A stretch of DNA of 64,000 bases from Octopus vulgaris. Taxonomy: Eukaryota. Both the position numbers and the translations under genes were made by a program. Location of the stretch: contig OX597833.1 of the NCBI GenBank assembly GCA_951406725.2, positions 37,386,001-37,450,000 on the forward strand. The letters are read 5' to 3'. Shown here piece by piece: positions 9,908 to 44,289 of the stretch; positions within the stretch are counted from its first letter, which is position 1; each line of letters opens with the position of its first letter. The notes beneath the pieces are model-generated. The model did not search any database and was not told the DNA's origin. It saw only the letters and a program-made list of their open reading frames with translations.

Positions 9908-10174
9908 AGTTCAGCAAAATTTGGATTCGGATGAATATGGTACTTAAGTTAAAGGCACCAAAATTTTGTATGGTGTTATCCATATAAGTCAGGTGGGGTG
10001 ATTGTAATCAAAATGAGCAACAAGGATATCCAAGGTAGAGTAGTACAATTGTTTCGTGCTACTTCATTTTATTAAACCCTGTAAGTATTACATCAGTTTT
10101 AAAATGTGGAGCAATCTTCAGCCACATATAGAATTTTTCAATTAAACGGACAATGCACATTCTTATACTTATTC
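9908..10174 (-). mobile_element. Short non-coding repeat carrying a hammerhead motif (candidate non-autonomous Penelope-like element/retrozyme)
   Basis: Contains the HHR at 10040-10125. Abuts a (TA)n tract and an RTE 3' UTR. Confidence 0.55.
10040..10125 (-). ncRNA. Type-I hammerhead ribozyme motif
   Basis: Minus strand reads GUGG-CUGAAGA-[uugcuccacauuuu...aaaaugaaguagcac]-GAAAC-AAUU-GUA-CUAC. Helix I is GUGG/CUAC, helix II is long, and helix III is the palindrome ACAAUUGU. Confidence 0.72.
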
Positions 10175-10428
10175 CGTGCAGGTGGCACGTAAAATGCACC
10201 AATCTGACCGTGGCCGATGCCAGCCTTGGCTGACACCAGTGCAGGTGGCACGTAAAAAGCACCCACTACACTCACGGAGTGGTTGGGGTTAGGAAGGGCA
10301 TCCAGCTGTAGAAACATTGCCAGATAAGACCGGAGCCTGGTGCAGCCTTCTGGCTTCCCAGATCCCCGGTCGAACCGTCCAACCCATGCTAGCATGGAGA
10401 ACGGACGTTAAACGATGATGATGATGAT
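10175..10428 (+). mobile_element. Solo RTE 3' UTR (SINE-like) with (GAT)n tail
   Basis: Closely matches 7135-7388. Confidence 0.88.
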
Positions 10429-10772
10429 ACGTATATATTATATAATATATATCATATATATATATATATAATATATGTATAATATATAATATACATATAT
10501 ATTATATAATATATATCATATATATATATATATATAATATATGTATAATATATAATATACGTATATATTATATAATATATATCTTATATATATATATATA
10601 TATATATATATGTATAATATATAATATACGTATATATTATATAATATATATCTTATATATATATATATGTGTGTGTGTGTATTACATAACATATATATAC
10701 ATATGTATATTACATAAATATATAAAATATATGTTATATAATATATTTATTATATAATATTATATATAAATA

Positions 10773-11997
10773 CTGGGTTGTCTGGAAAGTTCATGCCAAT
10801 TTTTACAGGAAAGCAAAAGGTCAATAAATACTTGCCATTACAATTTTAATCAACCAAATATGAACCATTTTGTTGCACAATGTGTCTCCATCTTTCCTTT
10901 AAATTGAAAATACCTTCTTCCCAGAATTGAGGTGGTTTCATGGCAAAGAATTCATCAAGGTATCTTTTTATGTCATCCAAGAATTGAAATTTTTACCATT
11001 AAGACTATTCTGCATAGAACTGAATAAGTGGAAATCTGAAGGAACAATTTCTGGTGAATATGGAGGGTGGGGTAAAACATCCCAGCCAAGCTGCAGCAAT
11101 TTTTGTCTGGTTCCCAAAGAAACATGCAGTCTTGCATTATCAAGTTGGAAAACAACATCCTTCCTGTTGGCCAATTCTGGATGTTTCTCTTGAATTGCTG
11201 CTTTTAACTCATCCAGTTGTGTGCAGTATTTCTCAGAATTGTCTGGTAACTTGAGAGAAGCTCATAGTACAGAATTCCTTTCCAATCCCACCAGACACAA
11301 AGCAAGACTTTTTTAGGGTGAAGACCCGCTTTTGGAGTAGCTAAGGGTGGCTCATGTCGCTTACTTCAGGATCGCTTTCTCTGAACATTTCGGTAGATAA
11401 TCCATTTATCATCACCTGTCACAACTTGCATTTAAAAAGGCGCATTTTCATTTTGTTTATAAAGCGAATCACATATGGAAATGTGATCTGAAAGGTTCTT
11501 CTCACTCAACTCATATGGTACTCAAACATCATAGCGATTTGTGTACCCAAGCTTTACCAGGTGCTCATGAATAACGGATTTTGATAGGTTGAGGCTTTCT
11601 GCTAATTCTCGGATTGTACAATGTGGGTTATTCTCAATTAATGACTTGATTTGGTAATCATCTGTAGTGGATGGTCTACCTGATAGCTCTTTATTAATAA
11701 GGCTACAATCCCCAGCTCGAAACCTTGTGAACCACTTCACAGTAAACTGCACATATTTCTTTGGTTGCTCGTGAGGAAAAAGAAAAGCATCAAAATGAAC
11801 TTTCTTGTCTTCCATTTTAAAGGGTTACAGAATTAACACAGGTTATAGGAACATAAACCTTCTTCCACGAAAAGATAGCTTAAACTGTGCTCTAAATGGA
11901 GGTGTAGTCAAATCCTATTTTATGGACTCAACCATGTTCTAAAATAAGTCGACGGGTAAGCTACTATAAATCAGCACAAACTTTCCGGATGACCCAA
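10773..11997 (-). mobile_element. Near full-length degenerate mariner transposon
   Basis: Imperfect ~30-bp TIRs (ctgggttgtctggaaagttc / aaactttccggatgacccaa) flanked by TA. Peptides KWFTRFRAGD..SGRP, DNARLH and HPPYSPEIVPSDFHLF. Confidence 0.93.
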
Positions 11998-11999
11998 TA

Positions 12000-12470
12000 A
12001 TATATATATTATATAATATATAAATAATATAATATATATATAATATATAAATAATATATATTATATAACATATAAATAATATACATATATATTATATAAA
12101 TAATATATACATATTATATAATATATAAATAATATATACATATCATAAAATATATAAATAATATATACATATCATATAATATATAAATAATATATACATA
12201 TTATATAATAAATAAATAATATATACATATTATATAATAAATATAATATATTATATAATAAATACATATATTATATAATAAATAAATATATATATTATAC
12301 AATAAATAAATAATATATATATATATTATATAATAAATAAATAATATATATATTATATAATAAATATCCATATATATATATTATATAATATATAAATAAT
12401 ATATATTATATAATATATATTATATAATATATAGGTAATATATATGATATAATAAAGATATATTATATAT
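12000..12470. repeat. AT-rich low-complexity tract
   Basis: tataatatataaataatatatacatat-like units. Confidence 0.9.
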
Positions 12471-12474
12471 GTTA

Positions 12475-12885
12475 TGTGTTCATATTGAGTTGTGGAAGAT
12501 ATTTATCAATGAAAGTTGCCTCTTTATTCATTCTTTGTTGTACTGAGGTGTTCTGTGAACATTGATAGAAGGGGAAAATTAGGAAATTAGGATCAAGATT
12601 CCTAGCACACCTATGTGTTCACTAACCTGTATCAGTCTGTATTGTGGGTGGTTCTTTGACAGAGTGAAATTCCTGTTTAGCCAATATAATTATGACCACA
12701 CCCTAAGCATGTAATGGCATAGATAAGATTTTCCAAGGCACAAGTGAAATTTGATTTGATCATAAATATTTCACCTTGTTTAAAGTGGAATTCTGAACCC
12801 TCCAAAAGGTGGGGGCATATACCACAGTTAGGTCGACCACATATTTTCACTTTTGGTTCTCTGTTGTTAATGGATTAGTCTTAAT
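12475..12885 (-). mobile_element. Penelope-like element (Neptune-type) Cys-rich linker plus GIY-YIG endonuclease fragment
   Basis: Minus-strand translation with frameshifts: KICGRPNCGICPHLLEG...SNFTCALENLIYAITCLGCGHNYIG*TG...VSEHI...RMNKEATFIDKYLPQLN. Not in the ORF track. Confidence 0.85.
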
Positions 12886-13306
12886 ATTTCTTTTATCAAG
12901 AGCAAAATGCACCCCAAATCATTGAAAAATATTAACCAGTGCAAGACTATATCCATTAACAACAGAACCAACACACACACACACACAAACAAACATCATT
13001 TTTCTTACTTTTTATTCGTGTGCAAAGGCAGAACATTTTACCTTAACAAGACTTTTGAGACTGGAAGGGAGGAAGGTATCCTTAAGTCAGATGTCTGGCC
13101 TGAATGCTTGCAACAAAGTAGATTCCATTAAAAAAATCTTGGGTGCCTTTAGTGGAGCTGCTATACAGGAATGGATTAAGTTTGCCACAGACACACATAC
13201 ACAAAACAACAAGTGTTGCAAGTAAGAGTTAGTAACAAAGAATGATCAAAAAGCATTATGTATTTTGTTACAAAAAGAAAATTCTGGTCACAATCTTCAA
13301 ACTTAC

Positions 13307-42736: not shown

Positions 42737-42836
42737 CACCTACAATTGTTTCATTTCTCAACCCAAATTAAAACTACAAAACAAAAATATATAATTTTGC
42801 ATTTTAAAATACCTTGGAGGGAAAATCATCCGGGTG
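42737..42836 (-). ncRNA. Type-I hammerhead motif, outer unit, core-mutated copy
   Basis: CACC-CGGAUGA (U4>G)-long helix II-GAAAC-AAUU-GUA-GGUG. Confidence 0.55.
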
Positions 42837-42983
42837 CACAAAGGACAATATAAGGATTACATTATGATCCGTTGAGATATTCAGAATATATATAGTCCTG
42901 TTTATTATGTGCGTATGTATATATATATATATATATATATATATATATATTTATCAAAAGAAAAACATGATGCAAAGGATTTA

Positions 42984-43071
42984 GCGGTACATATGTTTCT
43001 GGCTTTTATTAGACGGTTTATATCAATGCATAATTGATGTAATATGTATGTCAATAGCCTTCTTCAGCCGC
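42984..43071 (-). ncRNA. Type-I hammerhead ribozyme motif, inner unit, intact core
   Basis: GCGG-CUGAAGA-[aggcu...agcca]-GAAAC-AUAU-GUA-CCGC. Helix I is perfect and helix III is the palindrome ACAUAUGU. Confidence 0.75.
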
Positions 43072-43281
43072 GCACAATTACTGCTTCAAGGACATGTATT
43101 ACATTATAAGTTTGGGAATGGAAATCTTCGTAGTCGTCGAGTGAAAAACGGGACGGACGCTTTGTTTTTGTTTTGGTGCCTCGCTCTGTTGTACACGACT
43201 ATGAGGATTTGCATCCCCAACGTAAATCGTCTTTTTCCCAAACTTATAATGTAATACATGTCCTTGAAGTAGTAATTGTGC

Positions 43282-43369
43282 GCGGCTGAAGAAGGCTTTT
43301 GACATACATATTACATCAATTACGCATTGATATAAACCGTCTAATAAAAGCTAGAAACATATGTATCGC
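43282..43369 (+). ncRNA. Type-I hammerhead ribozyme motif, inner unit, second copy
   Basis: GCGG-CUGAAGA-[aggcuuuu...aaaagcua]-GAAAC-AUAU-GUA-UCGC, with a G-U wobble in helix I. Confidence 0.72.
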
Positions 43370-43622
43370 TAAATCCTTTGCATCATGTTTTTCTTTTGAT
43401 AAATATACTCTATCACCTACACCACTAACTGGCATATACAGGTGCTTACAATTATCAAGTATTCACCGTGAATTTTTATATATATATATATATATATATA
43501 TATATATATATGAGTGTGTGTGCGTGTGTGCGCGTGTGTGTATACGCTTACATATACATACACACATATATATTCTGAATATCTCAACGGATCATAATGT
43601 AATCCTTATATTCTCCCTTGTG

Positions 43623-43726
43623 TACACTGATGATTTTCCATCCAAGGTATCTTAAAATACAAAATTATATATTTATATATGTTTTGTAGTTTTAATTTTA
43701 GTTGAGAAATGAAACAATTGTTGGTG
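43623..43726 (+). ncRNA. Type-I hammerhead motif, outer unit, helix-I-damaged copy
   Basis: CUGAUGA-long helix II (uaaaauacaaaa/uuuuguaguuuua)-GAAAC-AAUU-GUU-GGUG. The 5' strand of helix I carries a small deletion. Confidence 0.55.
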
Positions 43727-44289
43727 AATATGTTAATTAATTAATAAAATTAATCTGTATCCATTAGATCTCTCTGTTTTCAAACTCGATATATATATAT
43801 ATATATATATATATATATATATATATATATATACAGAGAGAGGGGAGAGACAGACAGACAAACAAACAAGCAGACAGACAGACAGACAGACAGACAGACA
43901 GACAGACAGACAGACAGATAGATAGATAGATAGATAGATAGATAGATAGATAGATCATAAGTGTTTTGTAAACTTTCGAGACAAGCTGAAACAAATTTTT
44001 TAATATCTCGAAGCACACACATAAAGCTATAAATATTAACATATGACTATTGGGTTCAAGAACCCTTTGGATGGAAAAAGTTGGTCTTTAGTATTAGGTA
44101 CATATTTGAAGAACTTCATTTTCTGAAGTTATTATGATCACATCTTAAAAAAAAAAAAGAAAGACAAAAAAAACAAACAATTCTAACGCAAGTGAATATA
44201 TTTTAAAGAAAAACTCATTTCGAAAACTTAACAGTGAAAACGAGTATGTCAATGCTTAAAAGTCACTTATTTAAGGGTCATTTTTACAA

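Follow-up and report, generated by a model that had tools for sequence, protein, structure and literature searches.

The hammerhead ribozymes in the pseudo-long terminal repeats (pseudo-LTRs) of Penelope-like elements (PLEs) have a helix I of 4-5 bp, an additional base at the helix II foot and a palindromic helix III of 1-2 bp with a 2-4-nt loop, for which a dimer model has been proposed; most are solo motifs, and where two lie on opposite strands they are separated by 100-700 bp (Cervera and de la Pena 2014, PMC4209133). A U.U pair at the helix II foot and a helix III of 2 bp plus a tetraloop are known from axolotl and invertebrate motifs (PMC7229834). Nearly all families of the Hydra clade target (TA)n (Craig et al. 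2021, PMC8557442), and by our own reading of File S2 of that paper the helix II foot is U.U or U.C in 15 of its 26 Hydra rows; core-only hammerhead searches in the same work used spacers of 7-17 nt. In the Octopus vulgaris assembly, PLEs account for 6.83% and 190 families, and the main text describing it is silent on ribozymes (PMC13282606). Here, we describe five hammerhead motifs with a greatly lengthened helix II in a 64,000-nt stretch from this species (assembly GCA_951406725.2, contig OX597833.1, positions 37,386,001 to 37,450,000; referred to as the window, in whose own coordinates positions are given). On balance, we think it probable that they mark the 3'-terminal portions, pseudo-LTR and tail, of 5'-truncated insertions belonging to three TA-targeting PLE families.

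The window has 34.6% GC, big TA arrays and many broken retroelements. A structure-aware scan of it, which allowed one core mismatch and three of four helix-I pairs with a palindromic helix III, found five type I motifs in three families, with a helix II of 59-77 nt:

10040..10125, minus strand: family 1 hammerhead; 4-bp helix I, CUGAAGA, 59-nt helix II with a U.C foot, ACAAUUGU, GUA
42737..42836, minus strand: family 3 left hammerhead; core altered to CGGAUGA, 73-nt helix II, ACAAUUGU, GUA
42984..43071, minus strand: family 2 left hammerhead; 61-nt helix II with an A.A foot, ACAUAUGU, GUA; carries the family-majority bases
43282..43369, plus strand: family 2 right hammerhead; 61-nt helix II, ACAUAUGU
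43623..43726, plus strand: family 3 right hammerhead; 77-nt helix II, helix I with three of four pairs, ACAAUUGU, GUU

The core (CUGANGA / GAAA / UH, in type I order) is intact in four of the five motifs and helix I has 4 bp in four of five; neither family 3 copy is intact, because the left one has a changed core and the right one a helix I paired at three of four positions. Under the tolerant rule the five motifs compare with a mean of 0.005 in block dinucleotide shuffles, none of 200 reaching five, and exact matches number three against none in 100 shuffles. An earlier note on this DNA had reported five copies in three families that share a 4-bp helix I, an AU-rich helix II of about 60-75 nt, a non-Watson-Crick pair at its base (U.C, A.A or U.U), an 8-nt palindromic helix III and, in four of five copies, a GUA triplet. 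The copies, the measured arm lengths, the mispaired foot, the 8-nt palindromes (ACAAUUGU in families 1 and 3, ACAUAUGU in family 2) and the triplet, with the family 3 right copy as its exception, were all found again; the 4-bp helix I does not extend to that same copy, and the AU-richness of helix II (69-82%) is modest for families 1 and 2, because the window itself is 65% AT. At the foot of the family 3 left helix II, an alternative register would pair the mismatched base. The description of the families as otherwise not obviously alignable is fair, since seven of nine between-family comparisons were no better than shuffles and two were weakly above them (16 and 17 of 500). No hammerhead family appeared among the 150 of 460 Rfam matches listed for the window or in Rfam scans of three sub-regions, none of them for family 3 separately; this is uninformative on the long arm, because Rfam also missed a canonical sixth motif described below.

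Short helix I, palindromic helix III, foot mismatch and TA targeting are standard for PLEs, and the view that the architecture as a whole is unusual is not supported, as the first three of these traits occur both in print and in our controls. The sole trait out of the ordinary is the length of helix II, together with a palindrome of 8 nt, against 6 nt in the controls. The latter were 72 Neptune-like loci (L121-L192), 39 of which kept the endonuclease end and 35 of which extended 150 nt or more past it. A hammerhead was found in 18 of the 35 by a strict rule with an upper limit of 130 nt for helix II; the arm measured 5-15 nt in all 18 (16 distinct), with a U.U foot in eight, and among the other 17 loci, judged by eye, several have short-armed variants and none a long arm. 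Like the units described here, the controls combine a hammerhead with palindromic helix III, a tail and often a TA tract, and their order of open reading frame (ORF) end, hammerhead, tail and, often, TA tract is the one expected of the units as PLE ends, in favour of that reading; unlike them, they have the short arm, with the hammerhead 74-260 nt behind the ORF end. The Neptune-clade layout, a short helix II behind a C-terminal endonuclease with a CX2-5CXXC linker, is absent from the three families; in the Hydra clade an endonuclease with a CxCX5C linker precedes the hammerhead. In four control loci (L136, L141, L157 and L160) the hammerhead core is apparently altered, with G or N missing from CUGANGA (by eye), and L121-L125 are Neptune-like PLEs within prokaryote genome bins, probably host DNA. 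Pattern matches in viral and prokaryote contigs were read as chance; in two of these scans, one of the 13 matches had a helix I of at least 4 bp.

Among described systems, the motifs of Cervera and de la Pena share with ours the short helix I, palindromic helix III, foot base and opposite-strand pairs, whereas their helix II has 6-8 bp and a small loop (PMC4209133); this compact arm of the minimal type I hammerhead is replaced here by 59-77 nt. Hydra-clade PLEs target (TA)n, occur in Octopus and have the U.U or U.C foot, and the family 1 helix II starts with the same U-UGC...GCA-C, but their published helix II is 12-26 nt long and the Hydra-1_oBim hammerhead differs in sequence (PMC8557442). 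The nearest precedent found for the long arm is a pair of spike-moss elements, PLE-X1_sMoe and PLE-X1_sTam, whose helix II of about 50 nt is marked as deviating in File S2 of PMC8557442; unlike our units they are from plants, lack an endonuclease, target 28S rDNA and have another helix III. Non-LTR retrozymes are likewise short hammerhead-bearing units tied to PLEs (PMC7229834; Li et al. 2026 preprint), and retrozyme-type motifs resemble ours in the U.U foot of axolotl HHR_Amex2 and in a helix III of 2 bp plus a tetraloop (PMC7229834). They differ in forming tandem 220-390-bp repeats with a canonical 6-bp helix I and a loop-loop contact, whereas families 1-3 are head-to-head or solo units with a 4-bp helix I, and head-to-tail monomers with a 6-bp helix I do not occur among them in the window. 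The units were not matched to any catalogued PLE, Repbase and Dfam lying outside the comparison. No helix II of 60-77 nt was reported for animal PLEs in the literature covered, which did not extend to these two databases or to Lunse et al. and Arkhipova et al. 2017, either of which may describe long helix II variants.

The units that carry the motifs, and the TA tracts around them, are arranged as follows:

9890..9907: (TA)n tract adjoining the family 1 unit on its 3' side
9908..10171, minus strand: family 1 unit, with about 50 nt upstream, the hammerhead and a tail of about 130 nt; its 5' side meets the end of an RTE-like repeat
42676..42889, minus strand: family 3 left arm, the part common with the right arm; extends further in the 3' direction, with no defined limit
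42918..42949: (TA)n tract flanking the family 2 pair on the left, within the family 3 pair
42951..43136, minus strand: family 2 left arm, 5'-truncated, with the short 3' end and a 21-nt gap relative to the right arm
43137..43476, plus strand: family 2 right arm, head-to-head with the left arm without a spacer; long 3' end with a 68-nt tail
43477..43510: (TA)n tract flanking the family 2 pair on the right
43570..43789, plus strand: family 3 right arm, 3' end in (TA)n
43790..43833: (TA)n tract adjoining the family 3 right arm on its 3' side

The two family 2 arms are 97% alike and point away from each other. They meet head-to-head at 43136/43137, because the apparent spacer belongs to the arms themselves: 43137-43234 is part of the right arm, and the left arm resumes past the 21-nt gap as 43119-43136. 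The left arm stops early into TA, and the right arm extends 68 nt more. An older family 3 pair (87-90% alike) brackets the family 2 pair in the same orientation, with one short and one longer 3' end. Judged by its sequence, the cluster at 42.6-43.8 kb matches the arrangement drawn for PLEs, that is, inverted copies with a tail at one end only (PMC8557442, Fig. 2 legend). Two neighbouring stretches are recorded here as observations in their own right. The 163 nt at 41876-42038 (plus strand) lie between two TA tracts and end like the family 2 tail, a likeness that is not significant (48 of 500 shuffles do as well); the piece is possibly the tail of another PLE family. Behind the family 3 left arm, 42057-42545 (minus strand) is a single-copy stretch with a possible short intron and with E-box, YY1-like and CCAAT-like words, which we take to be promoter-like.

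Family 2 is also found in other sequence data. Part of 42960-43790 was present in 20 of the 24 listed runs, from four organisms, and contigs of four runs were aligned to 43119-43476, giving 1043, 802, 281 and 26 matching contigs per run; the first three are DNA-type runs of three organisms, in which family 2 is high-copy. Among the loose ends listed, the family passes into (TA)n at two 3' ends, namely 43407 (at least 14 contigs in run X1) and 43475 (at least 23 in X1, at least 22 in X5 and at least one in a third run). The left arm of the window ends at the 43407-type point and the right arm at the 43475-type point, so that the two ends lie 68 nt apart, compared with published PLE tails of 30-40 nt. 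Three further opposite-strand joints occur among the family 2 contigs. The earlier proposal of family-wide insertion into (TA)n is borne out for family 2 by these loose ends; in the window, where all units had been said to sit beside (TA)n, four of the five end directly in it, the exception being the family 3 left arm, whose TA tract lies on the 5' side and not at the 3' end. In X1 the summed depth increases, with dips, from 7.5e3 (43155-66) through 9.8e4 (core) to 6.2e5 (tail); it does not measure copy number, and contigs that diverge from the window copy reduce it. High copy, two fixed 3' ends in (TA)n, thinning in the 5' direction and a head-to-head pair with a single tailed arm together make up, for family 2, the textbook pattern left by PLE insertions that are truncated at the 5' end.

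The contigs also show how the ribozyme varies. Of the variant places listed, 40 of 45, one falls in the 27 positions of the family 2 core, helix I and helix III, at 43366, and 98% of the depth there carries the base that gives a Watson-Crick pair. In helix II, one variant breaks and two keep a pair among 36 paired positions, and 6 of 25 unpaired positions vary. Such variation would suit a hairpin that is kept but does not establish selection on the arm, with p=0.14 when all variants are counted. In folding, helix II was matched by 8 of 500 shuffles for family 1 and by 15 of 500 for the family 2 right copy; the two family 3 arms are not clearly above shuffles (34 and 62 of 500). Whole-motif z-scores are weak (-1.68 to +0.87), as would follow from a helix III that forms solely between two molecules: helix III has no monomer fold, and its computed self-duplex is worth -8.4 to -9.0 kcal/mol.

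Upstream of the family 2 core there is a single stop-free frame:

43134..43289, plus strand: stop-free frame ending on the UGA of the family 2 right core, with a weak coding signal

Twelve of the 20 variants in it fall at third codon positions (p=0.013), the indels that could be placed measure 3, 15 and 21 nt, and a divergent loose end translates, by eye, as RFISMLLPHYV against RFVFVLVPRSV in the window. This codon-like pattern hints that the end of a coding element lies before the core. A bacterial match to 25 residues of the family 2 peptide was rejected as chance, and a second frame through helix II and the tail, open in the window, was rejected for want of a codon pattern and for a variant stop.

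Besides the limits of summed depth, several points weigh against 5'-truncated PLE ends. The contig analysis covers family 2 alone, not families 1 and 3; core conservation is not significantly above that of the flanks (variants at 1 of 27 against 39 of 295 positions, p=0.22, counted over 40 of the 45 variant places); the synonymous excess in the frame is not significant (9 of 20, p=0.08), and its 51 residues match no PLE profile, Pfam family or fetched protein; no reverse transcriptase or endonuclease ORF is linked to any of the three families in the window and contig data; and insertion in vitro did not need ribozyme cleavage in the Poseidon study (PMC11167929). Other points bear directly on a competing explanation, in which the units are short non-autonomous elements with master copies of their own, which PLE enzymes would insert in trans into (TA)n, as with Chlamydomonas MRC1 or solo retrozymes. 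In one X5 joint another family 2 arm begins at 43136, as a fixed-length short element would; the family 3 arms have an almost identical 5' boundary about 57 nt before the core, which such an element would also give; the very high depth is restricted to about 340 nt of family 2, with no endonuclease homology upstream of the core; and non-autonomous PLE derivatives are known (PMC8557442; bioRxiv 2026.07.22.740005). Yet the window holds no tandem monomers, depth does not level off from a 5' end onward, a further 19-102 letters are present in five of the six listed records starting at 43137-43139, variation upstream of the core is codon-like, and most solo PLE hammerheads are read as truncated PLEs by Cervera and de la Pena (PMC4209133). 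We regard such short elements as rather unlikely, if a serious competitor. The earlier note had inferred a radiation of short elements mobilised by PLE enzymes; PLE-type hammerheads and mobilisation are supported, whereas an independent short radiation is only a possibility: 5'-truncated PLE ends fit the anatomy at least as well, and ordinary PLE fragments were the case that the note itself had named as refuting it.

That the units are 3' ends of Naiad elements, whose reported lack of canonical hammerheads would then be explained by the long helix II, is very improbable. Naiads do target (TA)n, and eight were flagged as having a 'half core' with the second half 35-50 nt away (PMC8557442), but cephalopod Naiads are described as old remnants (PMC8557442), whereas family 2, with arms 97% alike, is young; moreover, the 3' ends of Naiad_Obim, _Ovul, _Omin, _Esco and _Adux are unlike the units (by eye), and none of 16 possible GAAAC-palindrome-GT words was found in the Naiad supplement of PMC8557442, where line breaks may hide some. 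Least credible of all is that the motifs are chance matches or dead relics whose long insert is random, structurally unconstrained AT-rich sequence: the weak whole-motif z-scores, the family 3 arms matched by 34 and 62 of 500 shuffles and the damage to both family 3 copies would suit it, but none of 200 shuffles reached the observed count, 120 chance matches in viral contigs included only one distinct sequence with a 4-bp helix I, the family 1 and family 2 arms fold better than 492 and 485 of 500 shuffles, and family-majority bases restore pairs.

If the units are 5'-truncated PLE ends, as we favour, the GIY-YIG nuclease of the element would nick (TA)n, and reverse transcription would be primed at either of two sites in the tail, much as two reverse-transcription start sites are reported for an anole PLE (PMC11167929). 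Copying would pass through the ribozyme and mostly halt after 100-350 nt, leaving 5' truncation, and two copies primed from opposite strands would be joined head-to-head; family 2 would later have inserted into a TA tract at the centre of the older family 3 pair. Along a complete tandem transcript, two of the ribozymes may pair through the 8-nt palindrome and cleave as a dimer, and a distal extension of helix II could be tolerated because these ribozymes lack a loop I-loop II contact. Since a head-to-head transcript would carry one ribozyme and its antisense, the copies in the window are probably inert.

A further-reaching proposal, which we hold tentatively and think more likely wrong than right, is that the units belong to an undescribed, abundant PLE lineage of octopod-like genomes whose 60-77-nt helix II hairpin is retained for a function, either to bind protein or to restrain cleavage, with a family 2 frame that stops on the core UGA. 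Were it true, animal hammerhead counts and claims of clades that lack them would be too low, because long-armed ribozymes evade short-spacer searches. If the long arm is real and active, it would represent a high-copy class of animal hammerheads beyond published search spacers and a natural test of helix II growth in a ribozyme that acts as a dimer; if the arm is merely tolerated, it is a footnote on PLE diversity.

The window also contains the ends of two PLE endonucleases:

12484..12859, minus strand: Neptune-type PLE GIY-YIG endonuclease end, broken, with a CX4CXXC linker; unattached to a hammerhead unit
13714..14090, plus strand: Hydra-like PLE GIY-YIG endonuclease end, broken; clade judged by eye from the motifs of PMC8557442; unattached to a hammerhead

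The two different GIY-YIG fragments that the earlier note had pointed out are thus both real, yet neither adjoins a hammerhead unit: they lie 2-4 kb from family 1 and about 29 kb from families 2 and 3. They show that TA-targeting PLE clades are present in this genome, and nothing more. The Neptune-type fragment is 80% identical to P0001 over the query, and its named relatives include Argonauta hians and bivalves, which suits an octopod-like mollusc, as does an RTE-like tail of octopus-like appearance; for the Hydra-like fragment, word search and Pfam returned no homologue, its support coming from protein-model features only. At 13714-14240 (plus strand), about 130-150 nt behind the Hydra-like end, a word resembles the 5' half of a decayed Hydra-type hammerhead (by eye) and is interrupted by a microsatellite. 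A third YIG-like word at 39441-39593 (plus strand) is degenerate and was dropped as unsupported as an endonuclease; after it lies the remnant of an LTR element, whose 234-nt repeats occupy 39932-40165 and 41295-41527.

A sixth hammerhead, absent from the earlier note, lies at 47798-47838 (minus strand) and is canonical, with a 6-bp helix I plus further closing stems, a 14-nt helix II and ACCCGGGU. The unit around it (47642-47856 plus 49736-49884, minus strand) measures about 350 nt, is bounded by a 17-nt direct repeat and is split by a 5'-truncated L1/Tx1-like LINE at 47857-49726 (RVT_1, zf-RVT); a 10-nt duplication sits precisely on the 5' strand of the stem that closes the ribozyme. In sequence, the 47642-49884 unit resembles a retrozyme monomer into which a LINE has inserted; should the site recur, the closing stem would be a LINE target not found among the literature matches listed. 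An Ig-domain exon of a host gene at 13307-13611 (minus strand) suggests that the sequence around it is intronic, and the family 1 unit and the left arms of families 2 and 3 are on the same strand. Other features of the window are a mariner-like transposase remnant at 10770-11990, TA-rich arrays at 14819-22246 (7.4 kb) and 29298-31486 (2.2 kb), a pair of 49-nt inverted repeats at 47080-47128 and 47586-47634, and a self-inverted segment of 339 nt at 63125-63463.

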